This document shows positions 2,340 to 31,071 of a stretch of 64,000 nt of DNA, piece by piece. Within the stretch, counting starts at the first letter, position 1. Every line of letters starts with the position of its first letter. The position numbers and the translations under genes were made by a program. Source of the stretch: a virus. The notes under the pieces are model-generated. The model searched no databases. It saw only the letters and a program-made list of their open reading frames with translations, and had not been told where the DNA came from. The DNA lies in IMG/VR virus record IMGVR_UViG_3300008107_000012. One strand, written 5' to 3'.

Positions 2340-3346
2340 TGGACTTTTTAAAAGATATTGTAAAAGAAATTGGTGATGATTACACCAAACTTGCATCAGA
2401 TATTGATGAGACTGAGACTTATGTTGACACAGGTTCGTATATTTTTAACGCACTGGTTTCAGGTAGTATTTTTGGCGGTGTCTCTGGGAATAAGATTACT
2501 GCTATTGCTGGAGAGTCTTCTACTGGAAAGACTTTCTTCAGCCTCGCCGTGGTTAAGAATTTCCTTGATAATCATCCCGATGGTTATTGTCTCTACTTTG
2601 ATACTGAGGCTGCCATTACAAAATCTCTTTTAGAGAGTCGTGGTATTGATACGGCAAGATTTGTTGTTATTAATGTTGTGACTGTAGAAGAGTTTCGTAC
2701 CAAAGCACTTAAAGCAGTTGATCTTTATATGAAGAAACCTGAAGAAGAACGTAGTCCTTGTATGTTTGTTCTTGATTCTTTGGGAATGCTCTCTACAAGC
2801 AAAGAGATTACTGACGCACTAAATGAAAAGGAAGTTAGGGATATGACTAAATCTCAACTTATCAAAGGTGCTTTCCGAATGCTCACACTTAAATTAGGTC
2901 AAGCAAATGTTCCACTCATTGTCACAAATCATACATACGATGTCATCGGAGCTTATGTACCAACGAAAGAAATGGGGGGAGGTTCTGGACTCAAATACGC
3001 AGCCTCTACAATCATTTATCTCTCAAAGAAGAAGGAAAAGGATGGAACAGAAGTGGTCGGAAATATTATCAAGGCTAAGACTGCTAAATCACGTCTAAGT
3101 AAGGAAAATAAAGATGTAGAGATTCGTCTTTTTTATGATGAACGTGGTCTTGATCGATATTACGGATTACTTGAACTCGGTGAAATTGGAGGACTTTGGA
3201 AGAATGTAGCAGGACGATATGAGATTGATGGTAAGAAGATTTATGCTAAACAAATTCTGAAAGAACCTGAAGTATATTTTACCGAAGAAGTAATGCAACA
3301 GTTGGACGAAATCGCACGTAAGGAATTTAGTTATGGAGAAAGTTGA
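2339..3346 (+). CDS. uvsX: RecA-like recombinase UvsX
   Basis: Walker A GESSTGKT; VLDSLG and MGGGSGLKY motifs; directly follows gp43. Confidence 0.95.
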   Translation: MDFLKDIVKEIGDDYTKLASDIDETETYVDTGSYIFNALVSGSIFGGVSGNKITAIAGESSTGKTFFSLAVVKNFLDNHPDGYCLYFDTEAAITKSLLESRGIDTARFVVINVVTVEEFRTKALKAVDLYMKKPEEERSPCMFVLDSLGMLSTSKEITDALNEKEVRDMTKSQLIKGAFRMLTLKLGQANVPLIVTNHTYDVIGAYVPTKEMGGGSGLKYAASTIIYLSKKKEKDGTEVVGNIIKAKTAKSRLSKENKDVEIRLFYDERGLDRYYGLLELGEIGGLWKNVAGRYEIDGKKIYAKQILKEPEVYFTEEVMQQLDEIARKEFSYGES

Positions 3347-18565: not shown

Positions 18566-19012
18566 TTGATGAGTATAGATATTGACTACGAAAACCCTTG
18601 GATTTATAATGGAAGTCCTTTTACTAGTTCTGATATTGGAGACTATTATGGGTTTGTTTATTTAATAGAGAACACCCAAAATGGTAGGCAGTACATTGGA
18701 CGCAAATATTTGTGGCAGTTTAGGACTCCAAAAGGTAAAAAACGTAAAGTAAAATCAGAATCTAATTGGAAGGATTACTATGGGTCTTGTCCGGAACTTA
18801 AAGAAGATTTGGAACATTATGGTAGAGGGGTATTTAGAAGGACTATCCTCTCCCTCCACAAAACAAAAGGGAAAACAAACTTTGAGGAGACCAGACAACT
18901 CTTCTACCATAACGTTCTCACAGAATCCCTTGACGACGGAAGGCCAAGGTACTACAATAGCAACATCCTCAACCGATACTTCCGAAAAGATTATTATGAC
19001 AGCAACGACTGA
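18566..19012 (+). CDS. GIY-YIG-family endonuclease
   Basis: GFVY...QYIGRK, YYGS and YYN motifs. Confidence 0.8.
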   Translation: MMSIDIDYENPWIYNGSPFTSSDIGDYYGFVYLIENTQNGRQYIGRKYLWQFRTPKGKKRKVKSESNWKDYYGSCPELKEDLEHYGRGVFRRTILSLHKTKGKTNFEETRQLFYHNVLTESLDDGRPRYYNSNILNRYFRKDYYDSND

Positions 19013-19208
19013 AGATATTGTTGCACACGTTCGTGATTGGGCAATTGATAAAATTGAACTTCTTCACGAATCGGATAGGCATCGAAATGCCCGTGCTCTT
19101 CTTGCAGAGTTTGAAGAGTGGATTGAACCCGAAGGAGATGAACTTGAAATTGTTTCTTTGGAACAAGAAGAAGATTGGACTGATGAGCAAGAAATTGATG
19201 TTCGGTAA
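18996..19208 (+). CDS. Small acidic hypothetical protein (MTATTEDIV...)
   Basis: ATG overlaps the end of the GIY-YIG gene; distal part of ORF 18780-19208. Confidence 0.65.
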   Translation: MTATTEDIVAHVRDWAIDKIELLHESDRHRNARALLAEFEEWIEPEGDELEIVSLEQEEDWTDEQEIDVR

Positions 19209-19217
19209 TCCAACATC

Positions 19218-19246
19218 TTGACAGACTCTAAATAAAAACTTATAAT
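19218..19246 (+). promoter_or_regulatory. sigma70-type promoter with embedded late TAAATA
   Basis: TTGACA-N17-TATAAT. Confidence 0.75.
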
Positions 19247-19376
19247 GTTAAAATCCCTGTTATGAGCAGGGTTTTTTATTATGAGATTTTGAGTGCGATT
19301 TAGAGCCGTGGGATCTGCCTCTTGAGAAAGGGGATGTGCGCTTTTCCTATACGGATGTAGAGTTCAATTAATTTTA

Positions 19377-20000
19377 ATGCAAAACTTCTTTACTGTAGCC
19401 CTGCCCCTTCTGGCATCGGTTACAACCATTTCGGCAACACTGCCATCATCTGCTAGTGCTCCAAAATATTCTATTATTAAGGAGTTTGAACCAGAGAAGA
19501 CAGCGATCCTAGAGGTTGCTCCCGAAAAGCCAAAAGAGAAAAGGCTAATTTGTAAAGGGTGTAATGAACATGAGAATGCTGCCCTGGCATATTTCCAGGA
19601 CCGTGGTATTAAAGACAGAAACGCCCTCGCTACCATCATGGGCAATATTCGTCAGGAATCAACTTTTATTCCTAACATTTGTGAAGGTGGTAGTAGGACC
19701 AGTTGGAATAACTGCGGACGCGGTTATGGACTGATCCAATGGACATCTGCCGATCGTTATTATGGATTGGGTGATTTTGCTAGGAAGTATGGTGGATCTC
19801 CATCATCACTTCATACGCAACTTCGTTATCTAACAACTGAGATCCAGTGGCGACGTATAGAAGACCGAATGAAGACTCCTGGTAAGTCTATCAATCGTTA
19901 CATGGATTATGCGTATAGTTGGATTGGTTGGGGTCATCATGGTGCTAGAACATCATATGCCCATGATTATGCTAACCGACTGATTCAGGTAGAAGTTTGA
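19377..20000 (+). CDS. Secreted cell-wall hydrolase (phage tail lysozyme-like)
   Basis: Signal-like N-terminus; IMGNIRQES and GYGLIQWT motifs. Confidence 0.8.
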   Translation: MQNFFTVALPLLASVTTISATLPSSASAPKYSIIKEFEPEKTAILEVAPEKPKEKRLICKGCNEHENAALAYFQDRGIKDRNALATIMGNIRQESTFIPNICEGGSRTSWNNCGRGYGLIQWTSADRYYGLGDFARKYGGSPSSLHTQLRYLTTEIQWRRIEDRMKTPGKSINRYMDYAYSWIGWGHHGARTSYAHDYANRLIQVEV

Positions 20001-20100
20001 TACAATAGAATACTAAATGTTAGGGGAAGTGTAAAAACTTCCCCTTTTTAATATAAAAATGATATATATAATTAATCCTAATTATTTTTTGAGGAGTATT

Positions 20101-20298
20101 ATGTCTGAAACTACACAACAAATTGCTGATGCATTTGCGACTTGGCAAACTGAAGATGCTAAGTTTGAGAAAGGAAACAGTGCTGCAGGCACCAGAGCCC
20201 GTAAAGCACTTCAAGAACTAACTAAACTTGCAAAATCACGTAGAGCAGAAATTTCGGAAGTAAAAACTTCACGGAAGGAAGCAAAAGTATCTGCTTGA
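20101..20298 (+). CDS. Histone H1-like Hc1-family protein
   Basis: KFEKGNSAAGTRARKAL motif; GAGGAG RBS. Confidence 0.75.
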   Translation: MSETTQQIADAFATWQTEDAKFEKGNSAAGTRARKALQELTKLAKSRRAEISEVKTSRKEAKVSA

Positions 20299-20335
20299 TA
20301 AAATAAATAGAGGGGAGTGTATGCTCCCCCCTTTT

Positions 20336-20629
20336 ATGTCTATCGACAATCTTCCACAAGAACCAGAAGACATAGTTAATATTGCTGCTAGAGCAGGATA
20401 TTTAAAAGTAGAAACTGATATAGGTGAAGTTAAATTAAACTCTTATAATCAGGTAGAGATACAACCAAAAGGAACTCCATTTGGAACAAAGTTAAAAGTA
20501 GAAGCAGACGGATCTATAACTCCTACTCTAACTTTTGATACGAAAAAGATGAGAGAACCTAGAAAGAATATTAATCCAGAACAAATATTAGATGATGCTC
20601 TAGAGGATTTTTTTAATGAGCAACAGTAA
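20336..20629 (+). CDS. Hypothetical protein
   Basis: ORF after TAAATA; start uncertain. Confidence 0.55.
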   Translation: MSIDNLPQEPEDIVNIAARAGYLKVETDIGEVKLNSYNQVEIQPKGTPFGTKLKVEADGSITPTLTFDTKKMREPRKNINPEQILDDALEDFFNEQQ

Positions 20630-20897
20630 GTTTAATATTTTTGAATTTAAGTTTGGTAAAGAAAAAAAATCTCTAAAGGAATGGATAAAGATAGGTGCCA
20701 TTATTCATGGATCTTTAGACTTGATTTCTTTGATTCCTGGAGTTGAGAAAAGAAAGGCTTTTAATTTAATGGATGAGATTCAATTGAGAATTGGGACTAT
20801 TGATATTATTAACGATTATATTATTCAAGATGAAGAGTTGTTAAAATATCGTATAGATAGAGTTATTGATAAGTCTCTGGAGGAATATAATGATTAA
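20616..20897 (+). CDS. Hypothetical protein
   Basis: Overlapping operon-like ORF. Confidence 0.6.
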   Translation: MSNSKFNIFEFKFGKEKKSLKEWIKIGAIIHGSLDLISLIPGVEKRKAFNLMDEIQLRIGTIDIINDYIIQDEELLKYRIDRVIDKSLEEYND

Positions 20898-21318
20898 ACT
20901 TTTCACTATCAAAGGTGGAAAAGTTAATGTACTAGGAATTACCAAAGCAATGGTAATTGCATTTATTACATCTAGTATTGTAGTTGCTATTGCAGGATAT
21001 TTTAAAATCTCTCAAGATGACCTTTGGAAATTTGTAGTTCTTATACAGCAGGAATTGGGAATTGAATTTGGAGAAGACCTGAATGAAAAATTCAGGAATG
21101 ATGAGAAGTTATTAGATTTTATCACAAAGAACAAAGTAGATCAAGCCATATATGACTATGAACGATTGACAGGAGACGATGGAACCCCTAGAATACCTTT
21201 GCCACGGTTGATAGAGAAGGCTCCAGATACTTCTAATTGTTATACTGAAGAGTGTAAGAAACTTGGAGGAGAAATGAGACTCTGTGCCCCATGGATTGAC
21301 ACCTGTAAACCAGAGTAG
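20890..21318 (+). CDS. Membrane-anchored hypothetical protein with C-terminal Cys cluster
   Basis: GGAGG RBS, TM helix, CYTEEC...CAPW..C. Confidence 0.65.
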   Translation: MIKLFTIKGGKVNVLGITKAMVIAFITSSIVVAIAGYFKISQDDLWKFVVLIQQELGIEFGEDLNEKFRNDEKLLDFITKNKVDQAIYDYERLTGDDGTPRIPLPRLIEKAPDTSNCYTEECKKLGGEMRLCAPWIDTCKPE

Positions 21319-21324
21319 TATAAT
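21296..21324 (+). promoter_or_regulatory. Consensus sigma70 promoter for tRNA-Arg/Ala
   Basis: TTGACA-N17-TATAAT. Confidence 0.85.
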
Positions 21325-21412
21325 ATTCTCACGGGTGTCGGGGGTCCAAACTCCGAGTAATTCCCAACCTTCCCATGCCTCTCAACGATGCACAAACAGG
21401 GAGGTCTCTTAT

Positions 21413-21488
21413 GGGCAAGTAGCATAATGGATAATGCAGCATCCTTCTAAGATGTCGATTGGGGGTTCGAGTCCCTCCTTGCCTGCCA
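21413..21488 (+). tRNA. tRNA-Arg(UCU)
   Basis: Cloverleaf; loop CT-TCT-AA; encoded CCA. Confidence 0.93.
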
Positions 21489-21559
21489 GGGGAATTAGTT
21501 AAACGGTATAACGGGTGCTTTGCAAGCACTTATTAGCAGTTCGATTCTGCTATTCTCCA
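21489..21559 (+). tRNA. tRNA-Ala(UGC)
   Basis: Loop TT-TGC-AA; G3:U70 and A73. Confidence 0.93.
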
Positions 21560-21560
21560 C

Positions 21561-21591
21561 TTGACTTTTTGAGAAAAAAGTCTTATAAATA
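21561..21591 (+). promoter_or_regulatory. Composite early/late promoter for the leader transcript
   Basis: TTGACT-N17-TATAAA overlapping T4 late TATAAATA; the spacer carries an inverted repeat GACTTTTT...AAAAAGTC. Confidence 0.75.
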
Positions 21592-21612
21592 AAAACACTT
21601 AGGTCGAAAACA

Positions 21613-21714
21613 ATGTCTTATCCAATGCCCACCAAACAGTTTAGTATTCTCGATTGCCGCTATTGGCATATTGAGGGTACTCCCCTGTTTGCGGATATGG
21701 AAAGACATATGTAA
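21613..21714 (+). CDS. Putative attenuator leader peptide MSYPMPTKQFSILDCRYWHIEGTPLFADMERHM
   Basis: 33 codons; AGGT upstream; codons 5-19 are 15 different amino acids; 3' third overlaps the antiterminator. Confidence 0.7.
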   Translation: MSYPMPTKQFSILDCRYWHIEGTPLFADMERHM

Positions 21715-21747
21715 GATGTAATCCATAAAAGCAAAAAGACAGGGGAG
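21680..21747 (+). promoter_or_regulatory. Antiterminator hairpin, mutually exclusive with the terminator
   Basis: CTCCCCTGT/ACAGGGGAG, TTGC/GCAA, TATGGA/TCCATA and ACAT/ATGT pairings; leader stop codon lies in the apical loop. Confidence 0.7.
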
Positions 21748-21775
21748 AGAAACCAAAAGTTTCCTCCCCTTTTTT
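21741..21775 (+). terminator. Rho-independent (attenuator) terminator
   Basis: AGGGGAG-A-GAAAC-CAAAA-GTTTC-CTCCCCT followed by TTTTT. Confidence 0.85.
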
Positions 21776-21851
21776 GTTGCCTGTGACAGTTTCCTAAGTG
21801 ACCACCAACCTCCCCCCAGAGACAAAACGGTGGTATTCTAATCAAGTGGTT

Positions 21852-21890
21852 GAGGGATCACCCCTCTTCCAGAACCTAGACAACTGAATA
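21852..21890 (+). promoter_or_regulatory. rRNA-operon-like boxB hairpin plus boxA
   Basis: GAGGG-ATCAC-CCCTC then GAACCTAGACAACTGAATA, resembling cyanobacterial rrn boxA. Confidence 0.55.
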
Positions 21891-21908
21891 TTTATCCTTA
21901 TTATGAAT

Positions 21909-21981
21909 GGGTCTGTTGCATAGTGGCTAATGCACCTGGCTTTTAACCAGTATATCGTGGGTTCGAGTCCCACCAGACCCA
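21909..21981 (+). tRNA. tRNA-Lys(UUU)
   Basis: Cloverleaf; loop CT-TTT-AA. Confidence 0.93.
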
Positions 21982-21985
21982 TCGT

Positions 21986-22076
21986 GGGAGAGTGCCTACT
22001 GTCGGCAATACGTGTAGGAGCGGTCTGTAAAACCGTCACATAGGAACCATCGGGGGTTCGATTCCCTTCTCTCCCA
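21986..22076 (+). tRNA. tRNA-Tyr(GUA) with enlarged D-loop
   Basis: Loop CT-GTA-AA; long variable region; acceptor GGGAGAG/CTCTCCC. Confidence 0.85.
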
Positions 22077-22080
22077 CCTT

Positions 22081-22153
22081 GGCCTCTTAACTCAGCGGTT
22101 AGAGTGTCTGCCTGTCTAGCAGAAAGTCAGGGGTTCAAATCCCCTAGAGGTCG
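22081..22153 (+). tRNA. tRNA-Asp(GUC)
   Basis: Loop CT-GTC-TA (U37); G73. Confidence 0.9.
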
Positions 22154-22157
22154 TCGT

Positions 22158-22229
22158 GTTCCTGTCGTCTAATGGTTAGGACGCTGCCCTTTCAAGGCGG
22201 AAACGAGGGTTCAAATCTCTTCAGGAATA
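22158..22229 (+). tRNA. tRNA-Glu(UUC)
   Basis: Loop CT-TTC-AA. Confidence 0.9.
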
Positions 22230-22233
22230 CTAT

Positions 22234-22305
22234 CTGGGAGTATGTCAGTGGTAGACAGCGCCGCCTGGAACGGTGAAGTCGTTGGTTCAAATCCAACCTC
22301 TCAGA
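22234..22305 (+). tRNA. tRNA-Pro(UGG), atypical loop (C33, A37)
   Basis: Loop CC-TGG-AA; C1:G72 and A73 proline identity elements. Confidence 0.75.
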
Positions 22306-22308
22306 CTT

Positions 22309-22382
22309 GGGAACATAGCTCCAACTGGTAGAGCACAGGATTGAAGATCTTGGTGTTGTCGGTTCAAATCCGACTGTTCCCT
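22309..22382 (+). tRNA. tRNA-Phe(GAA)
   Basis: Loop TT-GAA-GA. Confidence 0.9.
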
Positions 22383-22509
22383 CTTGACCTTTATGGTCAC
22401 GGAGATTCACTTCCTCCGTTATGAAACTTCGGTTGGTTAGTGATAGGTTTTTCAGTCCGAAAACTGAAACTGGTAGGTTGTTGATATCGACTCCTACCTT
22501 GATGGAATT

Positions 22510-22561
22510 AGAACAAGAGATTCATACCCTCTATGTCGGTAGTTCAATTCTACCCACTGCC
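22510..22561 (+). pseudogene. 3' part of a tRNA with CAU anticodon (Met), 5' half missing or displaced
   Basis: AGAG-ATTCATACC-CTCT anticodon arm, GGTAG-TTCAATT-CTACC T arm and CACTGCC; no adjacent matching 5' acceptor strand. Confidence 0.55.
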
Positions 22562-22563
22562 TT

Positions 22564-22635
22564 GTGTCGTTAGCCTAGTGGTTAAGGCAGTAGTTTGTGG
22601 AACTACCTAGATGGGTTCAATTCCCATACGACACC
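22564..22635 (+). tRNA. tRNA-His(GUG)
   Basis: Loop TT-GTG-GA; C73; no encoded G-1. Confidence 0.9.
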
Positions 22636-22637
22636 CC

Positions 22638-22709
22638 GCCCTTATAGCTCAGTGGTAGAGCAACTCACTAGTAATGAGTAGGTCGTTGGTTCAAATCCGA
22701 CTGGGGGAT
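22638..22709 (+). tRNA. tRNA-Thr(AGU)
   Basis: Loop CT-AGT-AA; weak acceptor stem (G1xA72, two G:U pairs). Confidence 0.75.
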
Positions 22710-22742
22710 CTCAACTATCTGGAATTTCCAGATAGTTCAAAT

Positions 22743-22820
22743 GTCTAGGTGGCAGAGTGGTCGAATGCGGTGGATTGCAAATCCACTATTATCGCGTGGG
22801 TTCAAATCCCACCCTAGACT
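22743..22820 (+). tRNA. tRNA-Cys(GCA)
   Basis: Loop TT-GCA-AA; U73; extended variable loop. Confidence 0.9.
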
Positions 22821-22825
22821 CCTAC

Positions 22826-22897
22826 TCCAGAATCGACTAACTGGCAGGTCAACACACTTTGACTGTGTTTGTCTAGGTTCGAATCCTAGTTCTGGAA
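22826..22897 (+). tRNA. tRNA-Gln(UUG)
   Basis: Loop CT-TTG-AC. Confidence 0.9.
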
Positions 22898-22920
22898 TTG
22901 CTTCTTTTAGAAGCATCAAT

Positions 22921-23030
22921 CTTGTCTGGACAGCGGTTCGATTCCGCTCACTTCCATTCTTGGGGGTGCCATGGTTTTCGACAGGCAGGAGGGTTCTGAG
23001 AATAAATCTCAACAACATCGTATCTTTCCG
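22921..23030 (+). ncRNA. ssrA: Two-piece (circularly permuted) tmRNA with truncated tag region
   Basis: Acceptor piece GGAC-AGCGG-TTCGATT-CCGCT-CACTTCCA precedes the coding piece GGGGGTG...TTCGAC. G3:U70 and P2 (AGGCAGG/CTTGTCT) are present, and the tag reads NNIVSF. Confidence 0.8.
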
Positions 23031-23101
23031 GGATAGTGTAATTGGTAGCACGGAAATCTCCAAAATTTCTAGTTAGGGTTCAAGTCCCTATCCCTTCGCC
23101 A
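23027..23101 (+). tRNA. tRNA-Trp(CCA), first 3 acceptor pairs mismatched
   Basis: Loop CT-CCA-AA, T arm and GCCA end; the 5' strand is fused to tmRNA tag sequence. Confidence 0.7.
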
Positions 23102-23444
23102 AATTATAATGCAATTTGAAATGACAATTAGCACATAAAATTTGACACTTATTAATTTCAGTCATTATTCTTTCTTTTGACCAACCTTGGTTTATTGTTT
23201 TAGAAATTTCTATCTCTTTTTCTTCTGGGTTTTTATGGTGAAATTGAATTGTTGCTGGGTGATTTTCTCCACACATTTCGCATTCTAATTGTTGTTTGTA
23301 ATTGCTAAACCATTCTCGTAATTCTTGTTTTCTTTTTTTTACTTTATCGCAGGATTTTGGTTTGTTATTGGCATACCATTTTCTTCTTGCTTCCCTCCTT
23401 CTTTCTTGATTGTTGGGATCTGATAACCATTCTTTTGACGGCAT
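23088..23444 (-). CDS. Free-standing HNH endonuclease
   Basis: CEMCG...FHH...CQILCANCH; TATAAATA and AGGAG upstream on the minus strand. Confidence 0.85.
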   Translation of the reverse strand: MPSKEWLSDPNNQERRREARRKWYANNKPKSCDKVKKRKQELREWFSNYKQQLECEMCGENHPATIQFHHKNPEEKEIEISKTINQGWSKERIMTEINKCQILCANCHFKLHYNLAKG

Positions 23445-23496
23445 TTTTATTATTCAAAGTCTCCTAAACTATTTATAAGTTTTGGATACTATACTT

Positions 23497-23571
23497 GCCC
23501 TGGTAACTCAGTGGAAGAGTGCTTCGCTACGAACGAAGAAGACGGGGGTTCAAATCCCTCTCAGGGTGCCA
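23497..23571 (+). tRNA. tRNA-Arg(ACG)
   Basis: Loop CT-ACG-AA; encoded CCA. Confidence 0.92.
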
Positions 23572-23608
23572 TTTCAAATCTAAATATCAACAGAGGTGTG
23601 ATAGGAAA

Positions 23609-24079
23609 ATGGAATTAGTAGAACCAAATTCAACTATACTAGTTCTGAACAGTTCTTACGAACCACTACACTTCACTAATTGGAAACGTGCAATTGTTTT
23701 GCTCTTCAAACAAAAAGCAAAACTCATCTCCAAGAGAATTATTCGTTTGGTAAATTATGTGAAAATTCCATTTTCCTATGGAAGATCCGATTACCCAACG
23801 AGAGCACTCATCTATAAACGGGATGACCACGAATGTCAATATTGTGGGTCTAAAAATGATCTTACAATTGATCACGTAGTTCCTCGTTCTAAAGGTGGAC
23901 AAGATACTTGGGAAAATCTAGTTGCTTGTTGTACTTCTTGTAATCTTAAAAAGGGGAATAGTCTTCTTAAAGAAACTAATATGGTTTTGAAGAGAACACC
24001 AGAATCTCCAATTAGCCGAATAGTTCTTGATCTTCAGAAAACAAAAGTTTCTGAATGGAAAGATTATTTGTTTCAGTAG
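23609..24079 (+). CDS. HNH endonuclease (McrA-like family)
   Basis: VLNSSYEPL; CQYCG..LTIDHVVPRSKGG..WENLVACC..CN.KK. ATG at 23609. Confidence 0.9.
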   Translation: MELVEPNSTILVLNSSYEPLHFTNWKRAIVLLFKQKAKLISKRIIRLVNYVKIPFSYGRSDYPTRALIYKRDDHECQYCGSKNDLTIDHVVPRSKGGQDTWENLVACCTSCNLKKGNSLLKETNMVLKRTPESPISRIVLDLQKTKVSEWKDYLFQ

Positions 24080-24106
24080 GACAGATTCAGAATTGGTACA
24101 TAGGGC

Positions 24107-24135
24107 TTGACGTATTACGGAAAATGCTCTAATAT
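24107..24135 (+). promoter_or_regulatory. sigma70-type promoter starting the second tRNA unit
   Basis: TTGACG-N17-TAATAT, preceded by a dyad motif at 24079-24100. Confidence 0.55.
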
Positions 24136-24199
24136 ATAAATTGTTAGAGGTTGAGTCCCTGTTACATCCTTATGAGGTGTACCACACTCAATCCATCAT

Positions 24200-24274
24200 C
24201 GTGGGGAAGTGTAGTGGTTGCACAGGAGTCTCATAAGCTCCAGGTTGGTGGTTCGATTCCACCCCCCGCCACCA
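24200..24274 (+). tRNA. tRNA-Met(CAU), initiator-like
   Basis: Loop CT-CAT-AA; C1xC72 mismatch; ACCA end; lacks the three G-C anticodon-stem pairs. Confidence 0.8.
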
Positions 24275-24347
24275 GCCCTTGTACTCCAACGGTAGAGAGG
24301 GTGGACTTAGAATCCATACAGTGTAAGTTCAAATCTTACCAGGGGCA
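24275..24347 (+). tRNA. tRNA-Leu(UAG), short variable arm
   Basis: Loop CT-TAG-AA. Confidence 0.88.
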
Positions 24348-24385
24348 CTTGACAATCAAACTTAAATAGTTCATGATTGTCTCAT

Positions 24386-24457
24386 GCGGATTTAATTCAG
24401 TGGTAGAATGGCTGCCTTCCAAGCAGTTCGTCAGGGGTTCGAATCCCCTAATCCGCT
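24386..24457 (+). tRNA. tRNA-Gly(UCC)
   Basis: Loop CT-TCC-AA; U73. Confidence 0.93.
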
Positions 24458-24477
24458 CTGAACCTTCGGGTTCTTAT

Positions 24478-24549
24478 TCCCCAATAGTTCAGTGGTAGAA
24501 CTCAAAACTGTTAATTTTGCTGTCCCTCGTTCGAATCGAGGTTGGGGAG
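24478..24549 (+). tRNA. tRNA-Asn(GUU)
   Basis: Loop CT-GTT-AA; G73. Confidence 0.92.
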
Positions 24550-24770
24550 TTGAAAGGATTGGAAATGTCCGATTCTTTCAAATTGGTTCTGGGTGGAATT
24601 CCCAGCAGTTCCGTTAGGGACTGTCCTTTGTAGGTTCGATACCTACATCTTCCTTATGGGAGATAAGAACGGCTACTGGAAACCTTCGTAGGTGCCAAAT
24701 ACCCCTTCTGGTTAAGGCTGGAAGAAGTAAAGAGTGGGAACATAGGTAAAGTTCTCAACACCTACCTCAT

Positions 24771-24842
24771 CTATCGGTAGTCTAGTGGTCAGGACAGGCA
24801 GACAATGCACTTGGAGTTCGGGTTCGATTCCCGACCGGTAGA
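24771..24842 (+). ncRNA. tRNA-like RNA without a canonical anticodon arm
   Basis: Intact acceptor CTATCGG/CCGGTAG, D arm and T arm; the middle is GCA-GACAA-TGC. Confidence 0.65.
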
Positions 24843-24846
24843 CCTA

Positions 24847-24918
24847 GGGCGATTAACTCAGCGGTAGAGTGCCTCCTTTACACGGAGATGGTCACTGGTT
24901 CGAACCCAGTATCGCCCA
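24847..24918 (+). tRNA. tRNA-Val(UAC)
   Basis: Loop TT-TAC-AC. Confidence 0.93.
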
Positions 24919-24946
24919 CTTGATAAATACTTAGAAAAAGAGTATA

Positions 24947-25444
24947 ATGGAAAAACTGTTTAAACTCTTAAGTGATGCTCAGGCATCACTTTTTGTTCTA
25001 TTTCATAAAACTTGGGTCTATCACTGGAATGTTGTTGGAAAAGATTTTCAACAACTTCATACTCTTTTTGGTGGTCAGTATGAGACTATCTTTGAAGAGA
25101 TTGATAGACTCTCAGAACATATGAGATACTTGAATGTAAAACCTTTGAGTAGTTTAAATCGTGTTCTTGAGGTTTCTAAAATCAAAGAAGCATCAAGTTC
25201 TGCGAATGCCGAAGCAATGATTTCCGATCTTCTTCAATCAAATATTGATTTCTGCGATATGATGAGTAAAATATCTGAAGAAGCAGAGGAACAAAAGTCA
25301 TATGCCACGGCAAATCTTGTTCAAGATTTAATGGAGTCTCATGGCAAGTTTGTTTGGATGCTCCGTTCATTTTCAGATACTGCATCAAAGAAAGTTCAAG
25401 AAGAAGTAGAACAAGAAATCGTTGAAGAAACAATTGAAGAATAA
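24947..25444 (+). CDS. dps: Dps-family ferritin-like protein
   Basis: HWNVVGKDFQQLHTLF, DRLSE and KFVWML motifs. Confidence 0.92.
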   Translation: MEKLFKLLSDAQASLFVLFHKTWVYHWNVVGKDFQQLHTLFGGQYETIFEEIDRLSEHMRYLNVKPLSSLNRVLEVSKIKEASSSANAEAMISDLLQSNIDFCDMMSKISEEAEEQKSYATANLVQDLMESHGKFVWMLRSFSDTASKKVQEEVEQEIVEETIEE

Positions 25445-25452
25445 TTGAAATT

Positions 25453-25710
25453 ATGGAAAACTTAAAAATTAGATGTCGTTCCTGTAATAGGGAATTAGAA
25501 GGACATCCAACAAAAACAATATCGTGTGGTTGCTCAAATATGGCAACAATTCGTGGAGATAAGATTTCAGCACTTGACTTATCTCAAATTGTTATGCTAA
25601 ACTCATTAAAGAAAAATCAAAACAAAGGTGTGTTAACTTCTCAAGATATTGCTTGGCAAGAAGCACGTCGTCAACGTAAAGTAAGACGACTTGATTTTGA
25701 AGTCCGTTGA
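25453..25710 (+). CDS. Small Zn-ribbon hypothetical protein
   Basis: CRSC...CGC. Confidence 0.7.
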
Positions 25711-25722
25711 GGACTTAATATT

Positions 25723-25807
25723 GGAAAGGTGGCCGAGTGGTTTAAGGCGTTTGTCTTGAAAACAAAAGAGGTGAAAGCCTCCGGAGGTTCGAATCCTCTC
25801 CTTTCCG
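25723..25807 (+). tRNA. tRNA-Ser(UGA)
   Basis: Loop CT-TGA-AA; long variable arm; G73. Confidence 0.93.
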
Positions 25808-25914
25808 TTTTACTTAAGATTTAATAATTTCTTCAACAGTGTTACGTATTGAACACAAAATGTTGACGATGAAAGTTCCAGAACTAGTATATAGTAGTAC
25901 TACGAATCAAAAAA

Positions 25915-26064
25915 ATGGATCAACACACCTATAATAATTGGGTGAAGATCAAAGAAACTTTTGAGACTTCTGGTAATACAGATAATATGTTCTATAAAAG
26001 AGCAGTTGAGATAGTCAAAACCCGTAGAGATCCTCTTGCAAAATTTCTTGGAGATGAGAAGTGA
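25915..26064 (+). CDS. Small hypothetical protein (MDQHTYNNWVKIK...)
   Basis: Read by hand; promoter-like TTGACG...TAGTAT upstream. Confidence 0.65.
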   Translation: MDQHTYNNWVKIKETFETSGNTDNMFYKRAVEIVKTRRDPLAKFLGDEK

Positions 26065-26264
26065 TGGAACCTCAAGACGAATTTATTACTCGTTCAGAAG
26101 TTCAGGAGATGATTGATGCAGCAATACGACGACACAACCGTAATGCTTCTATCATTAGTATGTGCGTCGGTTGGGTGGTTCTTGCTTTATTTGCTGAAGG
26201 ACTACTGAGACTGATTGGAGTCATTCCACCTTTACTGCCATGGCTCAAAATCACTTTGAACTAA
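26061..26264 (+). CDS. Small membrane protein
   Basis: IDAAIRRHNRNAS followed by a TM helix. Confidence 0.7.
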   Translation: MMEPQDEFITRSEVQEMIDAAIRRHNRNASIISMCVGWVVLALFAEGLLRLIGVIPPLLPWLKITLN

Positions 26265-26419
26265 TAGGTATAGTTTTTCTATTAGTCTTTGCTGCCACGA
26301 TGTTCTATCAGGGAACTTGTATCTTAAGAGGACAACGTGGATACTCTCTTCGTGATTATATGAAACAAGACAGCAACAATATGCGTAAAAGGATAGAAGA
26401 ACTATTAAAGGACAAATGA
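26240..26419 (+). CDS. Small membrane protein (MAQNHFELIGIVFLL...)
   Basis: Read by hand; one of a chain of overlapping small ORFs. Confidence 0.5.
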   Translation: MAQNHFELIGIVFLLVFAATMFYQGTCILRGQRGYSLRDYMKQDSNNMRKRIEELLKDK

Positions 26420-26598
26420 CAGAGGAAGATTTAGAGGAACTACTAAAAAGAGTTTTAGAACAAAAGATGAATGAACTTTTTGAAGAACCTTCTACATACG
26501 AGGACGAAGACGATGAATGACCGCATCTATACAGCACTCACAATTTTTGGTATAATAGGATTGTTAATCATTTGGTCCCTTAATCACGCATATCCACA

Positions 26599-27279
26599 AT
26601 GAGTCAATCAAACATTAATTTAATAGTTGAAAAAATACTCAACAGACTAGGTAAAACTAATATTATTAGTTTGGGAGATTCTCATTCTTATTTCTACAAA
26701 AATATAGATAAAATTGAAATAAAATGGATTGGACCTGCACTTGCGTATAATATTAATAAAGATGTTTCTAGTAATAATACCAAGTCAAAAATTCTTGATA
26801 TTTTAGACCAGAATGATCCATCCAAAACAGCAATTATACTTTCTTTGGGGGAAATAGATTTACGTGTTCATGTTATAAAAAGAGTAGAAATAGAAAATAT
26901 ATCCATTGAAGAATCTTCTATACGAGTTGCAGGAAAATATATTGAAATGATTGAATATATAATTCGAAGAGGATATAAAGTTCTCATAAATGGTCCTCAC
27001 GCTAGCGGTTCTGTTTATGATCCAGTTTTTCCAACTTATGGATCTATGGAAAATCGAAATATTGCAACTTTGGCATTTAATTCTCATTTAGAAAAATATT
27101 GTGAAACAAAAAAAATTCCATTTATTTCCTTATCTGATTTAGTTATAGATCCAAATACATATCAAACTAACCTTGATTTTATTTTAGATGGTTGTCATTT
27201 AAATGCTGCTCCAGAATTACAAGAAATATGTCTTTCTAGATTTCTTAGTAAATTAGAAATTTATAACCCAGAATTATAA
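26599..27279 (+). CDS. SGNH/GDSL-like hydrolase
   Basis: GDSHS, GEID and DGCH motifs. Confidence 0.75.
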   Translation: MSQSNINLIVEKILNRLGKTNIISLGDSHSYFYKNIDKIEIKWIGPALAYNINKDVSSNNTKSKILDILDQNDPSKTAIILSLGEIDLRVHVIKRVEIENISIEESSIRVAGKYIEMIEYIIRRGYKVLINGPHASGSVYDPVFPTYGSMENRNIATLAFNSHLEKYCETKKIPFISLSDLVIDPNTYQTNLDFILDGCHLNAAPELQEICLSRFLSKLEIYNPEL

Positions 27280-27422
27280 AATAATCAGTAAATAGTAATG
27301 ATTTTCCACATCGTAGAAGCACTCGCAGCAAATCCATTTTTCCTTTTCCTCTGCGGGTGCGGGTTGACAATCGTTCCTTTTGCTGGTATTATGTTTATAC
27401 ACCGAACTAAATAATGGTAAAC

Positions 27423-27494
27423 CGGGGTGTAAGTCAGAGGTAGACGGCTTGCTTTGGGAGCAAGAAGACACTGGTTCGATCCCAGTCACCCCGA
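27423..27494 (+). tRNA. tRNA-Pro(UGG), canonical
   Basis: Loop TT-TGG-GA; TTGACA-N17-TATTAT promoter upstream. Confidence 0.93.
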
Positions 27495-27510
27495 CTCATA
27501 AAATCACTTT

Positions 27511-27744
27511 ATGAAAATGAACCAAGAAATCGAAAAACTTCCATCCTTTACAATTGAAGAGTTTCAAGCAGATTTTGATAATCTTATGAATAGAGTAGAA
27601 AACGGAGAAACCCTACTCATTAAAAGTCAACACGGAAATGCAGTAATGGTTCCTTACAAAGAAGTGGTTAGTATATGTAACGAAGCAAATGTGGATCTTG
27701 AAGAGATAGTTAAGATTCACACAGACCACGAAGAAGGGTCTTGA
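27511..27744 (+). CDS. Phd/YefM-like antitoxin-fold protein (orphan)
   Basis: FTIEEFQADFDNLMNRVENGETLLIK..G.AVMVP matches the Phd N-terminal pattern. Confidence 0.6.
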   Translation: MKMNQEIEKLPSFTIEEFQADFDNLMNRVENGETLLIKSQHGNAVMVPYKEVVSICNEANVDLEEIVKIHTDHEEGS

Positions 27745-27782
27745 CGAAGGGTTCCAAATCTCCTAAAATGATTTGGTCTTAA

Positions 27783-27854
27783 GGGACCGTTGCTTATTGG
27801 TTAAAGCCGTCGCCTTATAAGCGGCAGAACCGAGTTCAATTCTCGGCGGTCCTA
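27783..27854 (+). tRNA. tRNA-Ile(UAU)
   Basis: Loop CT-TAT-AA. Confidence 0.88.
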
Positions 27855-27880
27855 CTTACTCATAACTTTAATAAATAGTT

Positions 27881-28288
27881 ATGAGTTATATACAACTTAA
27901 TATGCCACGAAAAAGAAAAACATCAGCAGATTGCGATTTAATACGAGAGTATCAACGCAACTGGCTAAGAGATAAACTTAAAAATGATCCAGAGTACAAA
28001 GAAAGACACTATGCAAATAAACAAAAAAGAGCAGAAACAAATAGAAAACTTTTAAAAGAGTTAAAAGAAAATTCTCCTTGTTCTGCTTGTGGGGAGTATC
28101 ATCCAACTTGCTGTATGGATCATCATCATTTAGACCCTTCTGTAAAAGAAAAACAAGTTTCTAAAATGATTGAAGCAAACTCTTGGACTAAAATTCAACA
28201 AGAGATTGAAAAGTGTATTTTAGTATGCTCTAACTGCCATCGTAAAATACACGCTGGTTTATTAACGCTCGTTTACCCATCTGGTTGA
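27881..28288 (+). CDS. Free-standing HNH endonuclease
   Basis: CSACG...DHHH...CILVCSNCHRKIH; same subfamily as 23088-23444. Confidence 0.85.
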   Translation: MSYIQLNMPRKRKTSADCDLIREYQRNWLRDKLKNDPEYKERHYANKQKRAETNRKLLKELKENSPCSACGEYHPTCCMDHHHLDPSVKEKQVSKMIEANSWTKIQQEIEKCILVCSNCHRKIHAGLLTLVYPSG

Positions 28289-28340
28289 AGGGACCGATCT
28301 CATAAATCGGCAGAGGTCAGTTCAATCCTGACAACGAGCA
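28267..28340 (+). tRNA. tRNA with CAU anticodon (Met or lysidine-Ile2)
   Basis: Loop CT-CAT-AA; 5' end overlaps the end of the HNH ORF. Confidence 0.85.
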
Positions 28341-28416
28341 CTGGACACTTACCAAAGCGTCCTACTTGACTTTCAAACATCAACACACTATAATAACAAG
28401 GTCAACAATCAAAACA

Positions 28417-28632
28417 ATGACTCTCACTTCTAAATTCAAGAAAGACGTTCAAACCCTTCGTGGTGCAGCAAATGGTGATTTCTACCTTGATGTAAAGAAC
28501 CCGAAACTCTACAAAAAGGTTCGCCGTTACTATGAAAATGAAGGTGTAGTGTTCTCTGGTGATCCTCTTGATGACTACGAAATGCTTATGGAATATGTTC
28601 TTGCCGATCTTGAGTCTGTCGAGGTTGCATAA
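28417..28632 (+). CDS. Conserved cyanophage hypothetical protein
   Basis: LDVKNPKLYKKVRRYYENEGV; TTGACT-N17-TATAAT upstream. Confidence 0.75.
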   Translation: MTLTSKFKKDVQTLRGAANGDFYLDVKNPKLYKKVRRYYENEGVVFSGDPLDDYEMLMEYVLADLESVEVA

Positions 28633-28687
28633 TTAGTTAAATAGTCACGGATGGACTTTAACAGCACTGGTCGGGAGCAAACCCCTA

Positions 28688-28924
28688 ATGTCAAAAACAA
28701 GTATCTTGCGATATCTTGGAAACCTTCTCCTTATAATTGGTTATCAAACTATGTTGTGGGGAGATTTTAAATATGGTTTAATGTTAAAAGTTGTTGGGGG
28801 ATTACTCACAGTACCTTTTGCGATTAAACTTAAACTTTGGGATGTATTATTTCTATGTGCTTTCTTTGGTATTTCCGAGATATCAAAGTTATCCCAACTT
28901 TTCTTTAGTCCTGGAATGACTTAA
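28688..28924 (+). CDS. Small membrane protein (about 3 TM helices)
   Basis: Hydrophobic ORF lying between two copies of an RNA module. Confidence 0.65.
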   Translation: MSKTSILRYLGNLLLIIGYQTMLWGDFKYGLMLKVVGGLLTVPFAIKLKLWDVLFLCAFFGISEISKLSQLFFSPGMT

Positions 28925-29050
28925 AACTTATACTGGTGGAGTCAAATATGACCCTGTTTGGTTTCTTGCTTCCTCAAAGAGCAAGTGGTGCGGATGGGAC
29001 TCTCTCCCGCCTGGTTTCCAATTTCCAGTCAAAGAATTGGTGGCGTGCAT
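28906..29050 (+). ncRNA. Cyanophage structured RNA, manA-type (wcaG-type as alternative)
   Basis: Series of hairpins with repeated TGGYG, next to tRNAs and upstream of sugar genes. Family assignment is from memory. Confidence 0.6.
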
Positions 29051-29061
29051 GAAAGACCTAT

Positions 29062-29089
29062 AGGAGAGTTGCATAAACTCTCCTTTTTT
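29062..29089 (+). terminator. Rho-independent terminator
   Basis: AGGAGAGTT-GCATA-AACTCTCCT followed by a T run. Confidence 0.8.
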
Positions 29090-29118
29090 AGTATAATAAA
29101 ATAATAATAAAAAAATTT

Positions 29119-29902
29119 ATGAAACCTACTATTGAAGAAGTAAAAACTTTTTGGGATAATAGACCTTGTAATGTAAATCATTCTAAAAAAAAATCGCACT
29201 TCAAAAGAATACTTTGATGAAGTAGAGAATAAAAAGTTTTTTGTAGAACCTCATATAAAGTCTTTTTCTAAATTTAATGAATGGAATGGAAAAAAAGTTT
29301 TAGAAATAGGTTGTGGACTAGCAACTGCTGGAATTAATTTTGCTAGATATGGGGCAGAATATACAGGGGTAGAACTTTCAGGGGAAAGCCTTGAACTAGC
29401 AAAAAAGAGATTTGAAGTTTATAATCAACGGGGAGAATTTTATCAAGGAAATGCAGAAAATCTTTCTGACTTTCTTCCGAAAGAAAATTATCATTTGGTT
29501 TATTCTTGGGGAGTAATCCACCATACTCCACATCCCGAAAAAGTAATCAAAGAAGTTAGTAAGTATATGAGTAAGGATGGTGTATTTAAGTTGATGATGT
29601 ATGCATCTGAGTCCTGGAAGAATTATATGATTAGTATTGGACTCGATCAACCAGAAGCACAATATGGATGTCCTATTGCTTATACATATACTGAAGAAGA
29701 AATTTATGATTTACTTTCAAAAGATTTTGATGTAATTTCTATAGAAAGAGATCATATTTTTCCTTATCAAATTGAACCATACAAGGAAGGAAAATATATA
29801 AAACAACCTTGGTTTGAAGTTATGCCTGATGAGATGTTTAAAGTTTTAGAAAAAAAATTGGGATGGCATTTATTAATTACAGCGAAACTTAAAGGAGAAT
29901 GA
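29119..29902 (+). pseudogene. Class I SAM methyltransferase split by a frameshift in an A9 run
   Basis: MKPTIEEVKTFW... stops at 29217; the +1 frame continues SKEYFDE...VLEIGCG...YSWGVIHH. Confidence 0.75.
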
Positions 29903-31071
29903 GTATGAAGATTGGAGTAATTGGAGCTGGGAGACTTGGAATTTGTTTTGCTCTTCTATGTGAAGCAGCAGGATATGATGTTTTAGTTTCTGATATTAGA
30001 GAAGATTATGTTAATGGTCTAAATGACCGTAAGATCACTACAAATGAACCAGAAGTAGAAAACCTTCTTCGTGTTGCTAAAAACTTTAGAGCGACTACAG
30101 ATAATAAAGAAGTAATTCGTGAGTGTGATTTAATTTACACACTTGTCGCAACTCCTTCACTTGAGGATGGTTCTTATGATGTTTCTGCTATTTGGAGTGT
30201 AGTAGAAGATATTAAAGAAGAAATCGAAGTAAATCCAAAGAAAAAATATTTTGTTGTTGGATGTACTACTAATCCTGGTGACTGTGAAAACTTTAAAAAG
30301 CAACTTCCTTCCTGTGTAAGTGTCTTCTACAATCCAGAATTTATCGCACAAGGATCTATTATTAACGATCTTCGTACCGCTGATATGGTTCTTTTGGGGA
30401 CAAATCCTTTTGAAGATAATGACAGAATTGTATCTGAGATTAAAAAGTTGTATGATAAAATCCAGACTACTCGTGCAATAGTATGTACGATGTCAACAAC
30501 CGCAGCAGAAATAACTAAGATTGCAATTAACTGTTTCCTGACGACTAAAATTAGTTACGCAAATATGCTTGGTGATGTTCTTCATCATTCTGGTTGTGGG
30601 GATGAAGTTTCTGCTGTTCTGAGTGCTGTAGGAACTGATAGTAGAATTGGCAGAAAGTATCTTGGATATGGATTTGGTTATGGTGGTCCTTGTCTTCCAA
30701 GGGATAATAGATCCTTTGCTGCATTTGCTAAAAGGGTTGGACTGGAGTATAATTTAGGATCAGTAACTGATGAAATTAATAATCAACACGCAGGATTTAT
30801 TTGCGATTATTATGAAAAAATGAATTCTGATAGAAAACCTTTCTATTTTGAATATATCACTTACAAGAAAGGAACTGATATTCTTACTGAAAGTCAGCAA
30901 TATCGTTTATGTATTGATTTACTAGATCGAGGACATACTGTTTACATTCTTAATGATAGTAGAGTTACTCCTCAAGTCTGTGATTACTTGATGGGAAAGT
31001 ATGGGGAAAAGGTTAAATTTGTTGATGATAAAAAATATGTTATTGAACCAATTTTTATTGTAAATCTATGA
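29899..31071 (+). CDS. UDP-glucose/GDP-mannose 6-dehydrogenase family
   Basis: GAGRLG, NPEF and GYGGPCLPRD motifs. Confidence 0.9.
   Translation: MSMKIGVIGAGRLGICFALLCEAAGYDVLVSDIREDYVNGLNDRKITTNEPEVENLLRVAKNFRATTDNKEVIRECDLIYTLVATPSLEDGSYDVSAIWSVVEDIKEEIEVNPKKKYFVVGCTTNPGDCENFKKQLPSCVSVFYNPEFIAQGSIINDLRTADMVLLGTNPFEDNDRIVSEIKKLYDKIQTTRAIVCTMSTTAAEITKIAINCFLTTKISYANMLGDVLHHSGCGDEVSAVLSAVGTDSRIGRKYLGYGFGYGGPCLPRDNRSFAAFAKRVGLEYNLGSVTDEINNQHAGFICDYYEKMNSDRKPFYFEYITYKKGTDILTESQQYRLCIDLLDRGHTVYILNDSRVTPQVCDYLMGKYGEKVKFVDDKKYVIEPIFIVNL

Follow-up and report, generated by a model that had tools for sequence, protein, structure and literature searches.

A predicted leader-peptide attenuator ahead of a tRNA gene block in T4-like cyanophages

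Results

The leader unit and its place in the tRNA array

The window analysed here, a 64,000-nucleotide (nt) stretch of viral DNA (IMG/VR record IMGVR_UViG_3300008107_000012), belongs to a T4-like cyanophage whose nearest isolate is Synechococcus phage S-PM2 (~75% identity over 21574-22637); its DNA is present in lake and freshwater metagenomes from 17 studies. The window carries 23 transfer RNA (tRNA) genes, all on the plus strand (ARAGORN calls, with which Rfam agrees), and among them a small unit made up of a predicted promoter, a 33-codon open reading frame (ORF) and an intrinsic terminator, which we describe here as a candidate transcription attenuator of the tRNA genes that follow it. 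Coordinates are window positions, on the plus strand unless stated otherwise. In S-PM2 and in over 140 IMG/VR loci, the element has tRNA-Arg(UCU) on one side and tRNA-Lys(UUU) on the other. Scans of IMG/VR gave at least 120 matches for a degenerate pattern of the conserved core and at least 120 for a motif in the 5' untranslated region (5'UTR); the latter scan is independent of the coding sequence and added divergent versions.

The predicted promoter of the unit (21561-21591; sequence, alignment) consists of a -35-like TTGACT (21561-21566) and, after 17 nt, the T4-type late motif TATAAATA (21584-21591); the T4 late promoter motif is TATAAAT (as cited in PMC3037559). The motif stands at about -10, as in T4-type late promoters, for which a -35 box is not required. 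It is invariant in an 80-sequence alignment, has no other plus-strand copy in the tRNA region and is followed by the conserved 5'UTR. Just behind it, upstream of the putatively regulated genes, the ORF list gives a short frame with its own start and stop, the leader ORF (21613-21714, MSYPMPTKQFSILDCRYWHIEGTPLFADMERHM, stop TAA at 21712-21714), whose codons run ATG TCT TAT CCA ATG CCC ACC AAA CAG TTT AGT ATT CTC GAT TGC CGC TAT TGG CAT ATT GAG GGT and onwards. Among the matches listed, the 84 unique leader ORFs behind the conserved 5'UTR motif encode 75 different peptides and use three different stop codons, and 82 of them are 31-35 codons long. The N-terminal half of the leader shows free variation and in-frame insertions and deletions, and those codons that are conserved fall within RNA helices.

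In the S-PM2 record the element is unannotated, and a 118-residue hypothetical ORF is annotated there on the opposite strand. This coding sequence, S-PM2d160 (2864-3220 of locus L001, which is from LN828717.1), lies opposite the leader, the terminator and tRNA-Arg, and is probably a spurious call over the attenuator. In the numbering of LN828717.1 itself, the S-PM2 leader is at about 108824-108928, its terminator at about 108950-108990 and tRNA-Lys at 109108.

RNA helices of the predicted attenuator

We have identified at least 96 unique versions of a conserved four-region attenuator in IMG/VR contigs, that of S-PM2 included. Region 1 (21610-21641; minimum free energy (MFE) fold, covariation) contains the start codon and codons 2-9 (ACAATGTCTT..TCCA..CAAACAG) and pairs with 21685-21712 in region 2. 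Region 2 (21679-21712; codons 23-33) serves both as the 3' partner of region 1 and as the 5' strand of an antiterminator, the 3' strand of which is region 3 (21715-21748); both were delimited by pairing analyses, and the last 8 nt of region 3 form the 5' arm of the terminator. The intrinsic terminator itself (21741-21775; sequence, alignment) is a 12-bp stem with a 1-nt bulge (21741-21770) and a T run (21770-21775), T21770 being at once part of the T run and the partner of A21741. Over codons 11-23 Alifold gives a further hairpin, H1 (21643-21681), a candidate pause hairpin for RNA polymerase.

The helix between regions 1 and 2 is supported by covariation: 87.6% of cells in the alignment are paired, compared with 24-53% when the partner is slid, and double changes occur in 30 cells against 12.4+-2.9 in shuffles. 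Compensatory pairs include GTCTT/AAGAC, GACCT/AGGTC and GACTT/AAGTC, and AAACAG/CTGTTT versus AAGCAA/TTGCTT. This long-range closed fold was found in every divergent version, and its 5' strand lies within the translated sensing codons, the arrangement of an anti-antiterminator. The antiterminator arises from complementarity between the final 11 codons (21679-21709) and the segment that leads from the stop codon into the 5' arm of the terminator (21715-21748). The duplex has z<-3 in 95 of the 96 unique elements, its apex is at the stop codon in 92, and in 91 it shares at least 5 nt with the terminator arm, the two structures being mutually exclusive. The terminator, a G+C-rich hairpin with a T run between the leader ORF and the tRNA genes, has 95.9% of its cells paired and compensatory changes in seven of its 12 pairs. 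At the position of H1 a hairpin is retained with unrelated sequences (L122/L130, L146, L138/L139 and L158), and amino-acid changes in H1 either fall in the loop or restore pairing; the nucleotides of the DCRYWHI codons are near-invariant because the hairpin is built from them. As the 1:2, 2:3 and 3:4 helices are all present, the attenuator appears complete. An alternative scheme in which the antiterminator forms by default, with no 1:2 helix, was dropped when the covarying pairing of regions 1 and 2 was found.

The MFE fold of the free RNA consists of the 1:2 helix, H1 and the terminator (MFE z=-8.1). An Rfam search of 19000-31000 at E<=1 returned no family over the leader or the spacer behind it (21560-21907). 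In RNA data, which are assembled Logan contigs of related phages that do not define RNA ends and are uninformative for the parts they leave uncovered, a single metatranscriptome contig of 193 nt, from a relative, covers 21595-21780, beginning at the predicted start and reaching the terminator, which is a weak hint; other RNA contigs of relatives bridge the terminator.

The tRNA block behind the terminator

Between the terminator and the next clear promoter, at 24107, lie tRNA genes for Lys, an atypical Tyr, Asp, Glu, Pro, Phe, a remnant of Met(CAU), His, Thr, Cys, Gln, Trp and Arg(ACG). The first part of this block (21908-22383; ARAGORN, Rfam) has Lys UUU starting at 21908, Asp GUC at 22080, Glu UUC at 22158, Pro UGG at 22234 and Phe GAA at 22309. 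The Tyr GUA gene (21986-22075), which ARAGORN did not call, is a conserved variant: its D arm is long, its anticodon loop, CTGTAAA, is intact, and it is common to the relatives L041 and L016, with compensatory stem changes. The second part (22564-22897; ARAGORN) comprises His GUG (22564), Thr AGU (22638), Cys GCA (22743) and Gln UUG (22826), followed by Trp CCA (23028-23097) and by Arg ACG (23497-23571), which is the final member of the block in all 73 distinct tRNA orders. An earlier reading of the window from its letters alone (hereafter the sequence-only reading) had listed the same tRNAs for this unit; the list is correct, and the CAU fragment that it named is the 3' part of a tRNA-Met.

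The Met remnant (22509-22563) is 5'-truncated, and alignment with relatives explains how. As far as 22508 the window shares 97% identity with relatives in which Phe is followed by the spacer and Ile(GAU); from 22509 it is 90% identical to relatives with Met-His-Thr-Cys-Gln. This switch of homology points to a single deletion at 22508|22509, which would have taken Ile(GAU), Ser(GCU) and the 5' half of Met; the missing half of the Met tRNA is visible in relatives, in loose ends of RNA contigs. The sequence-only reading had predicted, from leader codons left without a tRNA, that G34 tRNAs would occur in relatives or in a segment deleted at 23029. The tRNAs are indeed there in relatives' blocks (Ile GAU, Ser GCU/GGA, Leu GAG/AAG, Gly GCC); the deletion has to be moved from 23029 to 22508/9. 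The 125-nt spacer behind Phe (22384-22508), delimited by alignment with relatives, is itself a conserved non-tRNA element, 97% identical in at least ten relatives, where it lies between Phe and Ile(GAU).

In nearly all loci the usual order is Arg(UCU), with or without Ala(UGC), the leader unit, the spacer, and then Lys, Tyr, Asp, Glu, (Pro), (Phe), Ile(GAU), Ser(GCU), (Ser GGA), Met, His, (Thr), (Cys), Gln, (Leu GAG/AAG), Trp and Arg(ACG), bracketed genes being optional. Counted over the 73 distinct tRNA orders among the matches listed, Arg ACG, Lys UUU, Ile GAU, His GUG, Asp GUC, Glu UUC, Gln UUG, Tyr GUA, Thr AGU/GGU, Cys GCA, Phe GAA, Trp CCA, Ser GCU and Leu GAG/AAG occur essentially only in the block, and Asn GUU, Gly UCC, Val UAC, Ser UGA, Thr UGU, Arg UCU, Leu UAG, Ala UGC, Ile UAU and Leu UAA essentially only outside it. 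Thus G34/A34 tRNAs and those of two-codon boxes stand behind the attenuator, and U34 tRNAs of four-codon boxes, together with Asn, stand outside; this partition is conserved. It bears out the division into two tRNA sets made by the sequence-only reading. As that reading had it, one set may be constitutive and the other inducible, and the latter may replace host tRNAs; this we infer.

In 11 relatives (e.g., L035, L010 and L062) ARAGORN calls an Arg(GCG) gene at the Tyr position, between Lys and Asp, which could be a true replacement or a miscalled variant tRNA.

Leader codons and the tRNAs of the block

The codon content of the leader deserves special attention. All 12 intact amino-acid identities of the block are found within leader codons 2-21, a coverage matched by none of ~15,000 equal-length windows from the phage's own ORFs, which we used for all chance tests (P<1e-4). 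Codons 2-19 specify 15 different amino acids in 18 codons (P=0.011), with a run of 15 all-different residues (P=0.002), and contain C, W, H, M and Y together (P=7e-4). Every cognate codon that had been listed for the tRNAs of the unit is present in the sequence. Regulatory codons are thus present in a multivalent form, with no tandem runs.

Comparable coverage of the leader's own block recurs in divergent lineages: 11/11 in S-PM2 (P=1e-4), 15/15 in L025, 12/13 in L122, and likewise in L053. In L139, the most clear-cut example, coverage is 8/8 and 15 of 17 codons are matched (P=0.0015); its block has no His, Trp, Met, Cys, Pro or Thr tRNAs, and the same six amino acids are missing from its sensing codons. 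Over 61 unique leaders, anticodons of the block type read 92% of the sensing codons, compared with 64% of the codons in phage ORFs; Asn codons are the chief exception. The choice of codon class (CTC rather than TTA, for example) is marginal against the phage's own codon usage, with a product of family fractions of ~0.06.

Co-variation of leader codons with block tRNAs across genomes had been proposed as a test. As a simple permutation of leaders against blocks ignores phylogeny, we replaced it by independent contrasts on a tree of 103 loci built from the intervening sequence, with mismatched amino-acid pairs as a control. For Pro, 8.4 contrasts went in the same direction, none in the opposite one, and 4.6 were unchanged; pooled over all amino acids, 26.3 were in the same direction, 4.4 opposite and 118 without change. 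Matched pairing gave a net score of 22.0 against 9.2+-4.8 for permuted pairing (p=0.004). The co-variation is real but loose, a modest effect: the proposed correlation holds for matched pairs, but the leader mostly does not change with the tRNAs and the signal is in part non-specific.

The spacer and downstream promoters

The conserved spacer of ~130 nt between the terminator and tRNA-Lys (21776-21907; alignment of spacers) contains a hairpin (21853-21867) followed by GAACCTAGACAA (21872-21883), together resembling a boxB/boxA signal. The hairpin and the motif AG(A/C)ACCT(A/T)GA(C/A)AA are retained even in the short spacers of clade 2, and the boxA-like site is identical to the cyanobacterial rrn boxA, GAACCTTGAAAA, at 10 of 12 positions in the window (GAACCTAGACAA) and at 11 of 12 in S-PM2. 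In 60 unique spacers there is neither a copy of TATAAATA nor a sigma70-type match between the terminator and tRNA-Lys; the block is therefore predicted to be transcribed through the attenuator. TAGACA-16-TATTAT (21877-21904) was considered as a promoter of the block and rejected: transcription would start inside tRNA-Lys, the site is absent from S-PM2, and no such pattern is conserved in the 60 spacers.

A promoter scan found a sigma70-like promoter, TTGACG-17-TAATAT (24107-24135), that opens the next tRNA group and is conserved in L025, L046, L049, L086 and L133; several of the outside tRNAs in the window are preceded by sigma70-like sites. In ~50 loci, outside tRNAs begin 25-100 nt after Arg(ACG), which leaves no room for a promoter, and separate promoters are therefore not universal. 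The proposal that the outside tRNAs are transcribed from promoters of their own may hold for the window and a subset of relatives, but not as a general rule.

Other features of the array

Upstream of the leader, the outside set comprises Arg UCU (21413-21488) and Ala UGC (21489-21560) (ARAGORN, Rfam). Downstream, it occupies 24200-28341 (ARAGORN) with Met (24200), Leu UAG (24275), Gly UCC (24386), Asn GUU (24477), an odd His(AUG)-like gene, Val UAC (24847), Ser UGA (25722), Pro UGG (27423), Ile UAU (27783) and a second Met (28267), these starts being from ARAGORN and Rfam. The odd gene (24771-24844) is tRNA-shaped, is called as His with anticodon AUG (Rfam tRNA, 40.7 bits), and is found in nine relatives, always outside the attenuated block.

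In the window and in relatives, a conserved segment of ~60 nt (GATAGAGGTTAAGTCCCTGTTACATCCTTATGAGGTGTATCACACTTAATCCATCAT; 24136-24199 here) separates the promoter TTGAC(A/G)-17-TAATAT from tRNA-Met and looks like a structured leader. Directly before tRNA-Arg(UCU) lies an abiF RNA motif (RF03085, 21369-21405, 49.1 bits, threshold 37), itself directly behind a perfect sigma70 promoter, TTGACA-17-TATAAT (21296-21324); no abiF toxin gene is evident nearby. Beyond the array, a full-length wcaG RNA motif (RF01761, 28957-29054, 102.5 bits) is followed by a terminator-like hairpin at 29062-29084.

Within the block, the interval between tRNA-Gln and tRNA-Trp (22898-23027) holds a piece resembling a permuted transfer-messenger RNA (tmRNA). 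Rfam matches there span 22883-23089: RF04321 scores 48.5 bits (threshold 47, partial model) and cyano_tmRNA 56.6 bits (threshold 70). In relatives the element is 197 nt long and in the same place, and the window copy is ~66 nt shorter; the L049 copy, at 40.4 bits, falls under the Rfam threshold. Three ORFs for HNH-type endonucleases lie among the tRNA genes: 23088-23444 on the minus strand, between Trp and Arg(ACG); 23519-24079 on the plus strand, which matches genes annotated as HNH/McrA in other cyanophages; and 27881-28288, also on the plus strand. Trp and Arg(ACG) are adjacent in relatives without these ORFs.

Discussion

A model for attenuation by leader translation

We propose that the 33-codon ORF serves as leader to a ribosome-mediated transcription attenuator with four regions, and that the tRNA block from Lys to Arg(ACG) is under its control, a reading to which we give a probability of about 0.6. 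As the sensing codons are diverse and almost all are read by block anticodon types, the switch most likely reports whether the tRNA species of the block are sufficient and feeds back on their synthesis.

Transcription would start at the late promoter TATAAATA, RNA polymerase would probably pause at H1, and a ribosome would load on the still-free start codon. A ribosome that is slow or stalled in the first ~12-19 codons would mask region 1, leaving region 2 to pair with region 3 in a long hairpin, the antiterminator, which carries the stop codon at its apex; polymerase would then read through, an outcome that would depend on the CTCCCCTGT/ACAGGGGAG pairing, pass the boxB/boxA-like signal and transcribe the tRNAs. 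A ribosome that reached the stop codon would occupy the apex and separate regions 2 and 3, so that the terminator would form; with no ribosome, region 1 would pair with region 2 and the terminator would form too. Pausing, ribosome dependence, the direction of regulation and the physiological trigger we infer from the structure.

A more far-reaching version would make the element a tRNA homeostat that also serves counter-defence as a sensor. The back-up set, which by anticodon would duplicate tRNAs supplied by the host, would be silent and would come on only when the matching codons are decoded slowly, for example after host shut-off or cleavage of host tRNAs by an anticodon nuclease, and the boxA-like signal would make polymerase resistant to termination through the array. 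We regard this version as possible but on balance doubtful.

Weighing the alternatives

Several points weigh against this model. The loci share descent, so that P values overstate their independence. Inspection of the sequence finds no strong Shine-Dalgarno before the leader ATG. At equilibrium, the full antiterminator is slightly less stable than the terminator combined with part of the antiterminator; antiterminator and terminator are nearly iso-energetic, and the outcome must therefore be kinetic, as in trp. When ribosome footprints were simulated in equilibrium folding, the terminator persisted in every case, which neither proves nor disproves a kinetic switch. The window retains Ile, Ser and Met codons in spite of having lost those tRNAs. 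Asn codons are common in leaders, and Asn GUU always follows Arg(ACG), outside the defined block though sometimes abutting it; the sequence-only reading was right to place this tRNA outside the unit, but the absence of Asn from the sensing part of the leader does not extend to many relatives. For the window alone, 13 of 18 sensing codons have a tRNA in its own block (P=0.10). Identical leaders are found with different tRNA blocks, and ~80% of the independent tRNA gains and losses leave the leader unchanged. Finally, in the mismatch control leader Pro also tracks Cys, Phe and Trp tRNAs, the score of tRNA-Cys with leader Pro being close to that of Pro with Pro; a general 'rich block, rich leader' link therefore makes up part of the signal.

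The last four of these points, together with the lack of any run of a single regulatory codon, would suit an attenuator that senses general translation capacity only, that is ribosome availability, elongation stress or shut-off late in infection, and in which the match of codons to tRNAs follows secondarily from helix constraints, from the codon usage of the phage and from shared descent. The architecture fits such a switch equally well. It is harder to reconcile with coverage of the full block, the rare C, W, H, M and Y included, which is far beyond chance and recurs with unrelated hairpin sequences, with the share of block-type sensing codons (92% where 64% is expected), with the parallel loss of six tRNAs and six sensing amino acids in L139, and with the advantage of matched over permuted pairing; overall we consider it unlikely, but the most serious competitor. 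It is appreciably less probable that the unit stands alone, as a 33-residue micropeptide or a ~185-nt small RNA with its own promoter and terminator, and that the tRNA block is expressed independently. A promoter, an ORF and a strong terminator are all there, one RNA contig matches the unit end to end, the RNA is highly structured (the MFE z score given above), and attenuator RNAs and leader peptides can act in trans, as excerpts of the reports on rnTrpL/peTrpL describe. Yet the peptide is not conserved where pairing imposes nothing, amino-acid changes in the core obey the rules of the hairpin, and in 91 of 96 elements the ORF has, in its 3' half, complementarity to the terminator's 5' strand, which a plain terminator would not need; moreover, the 60 spacers have no promoter before tRNA-Lys, and the place directly upstream of the block is invariant. 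We see very little likelihood that the element is a processing or folding platform for a polycistronic tRNA precursor, or a riboswitch binding a protein or ligand, with an incidental ORF: the conservation of H1 and the 1:2 fold as structure speaks for it, but the start codon, the frame, the length of 31-35 codons and the stop at the apex are kept across 75 peptides and three stop codons, and the leader and spacer matched no Rfam family.

Relation to known systems

At the level of its sequence, the phage element has every feature of the class of ribosome-mediated attenuators. The attenuators of amino-acid operons (trpL, hisL, leuL, thrL and ilvL, of which thrL and ilvL are multivalent) likewise have a promoter-proximal short ORF, 1:2, 2:3 and 3:4 regions, a T run, an internal hairpin like a pause hairpin, and regulatory codons cognate to the product of the operon. 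The phage element differs from them in that it would control tRNAs and not biosynthetic enzymes, in that its leader has no codon run but ~15 amino acids once or twice each, in that the ORF runs through region 2 with its stop at the apex of the antiterminator, and in being viral, with a T4-type late promoter. The pheM leader of E. coli pheST has Phe codons only and controls a synthetase; it is likewise a case of leader-peptide attenuation of a gene of the decoding apparatus that responds to the supply of charged tRNA, whereas the phage leader uses many codons and would control the tRNA genes themselves.

T-box riboswitches also report tRNA status by transcription attenuation and act on targets in the translation apparatus, but they bind uncharged tRNA directly and have no ORF, unlike the phage element with its conserved reading frame; a T-box assignment was rejected, as the specifier loop/T-box model of Rfam is unmatched over 21560-21907 at E<=1. 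The hairpin followed by the boxA-like GAACCTAGACAA is reminiscent of the antitermination signals of cyanobacterial rrn operons; here the putative site, proposed from sequence likeness, lies behind an attenuator in a tRNA operon, just before the first tRNA. In the bmrB-bmrCD, vmlR and yxjB leaders, as excerpts of the reports describe, a slowed ribosome on a short ORF leads to read-through, with polymerase pausing as the timer (PMC4191407, PMC9226507, PMC6851288). Those leaders sense antibiotics and control resistance genes, and they are not known to be enriched for codons of the downstream product.

Implications for phage tRNA arrays

Discussion of phage tRNA genes usually turns only on codon usage or on escape from tRNA-cleaving defences, and to our knowledge the control of their expression is essentially unknown; a full-text search of the literature found no description of a leader-peptide attenuator ahead of phage tRNA genes. 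If the homeostat version is true, this would be the first leader-peptide attenuator known for tRNA genes and the first 'pan-amino-acid' one. A textbook mechanism would be put to a new use in an attenuator whose leader, with nearly all amino acids, gauges whether tRNAs are sufficient. The element is small, widespread and unannotated; the finding corrects the existing annotation of S-PM2, and its presence in this culturable phage offers an experimental handle. Such an attenuator would also explain why the arrays of these cyanophages contain two conserved sets of tRNAs.

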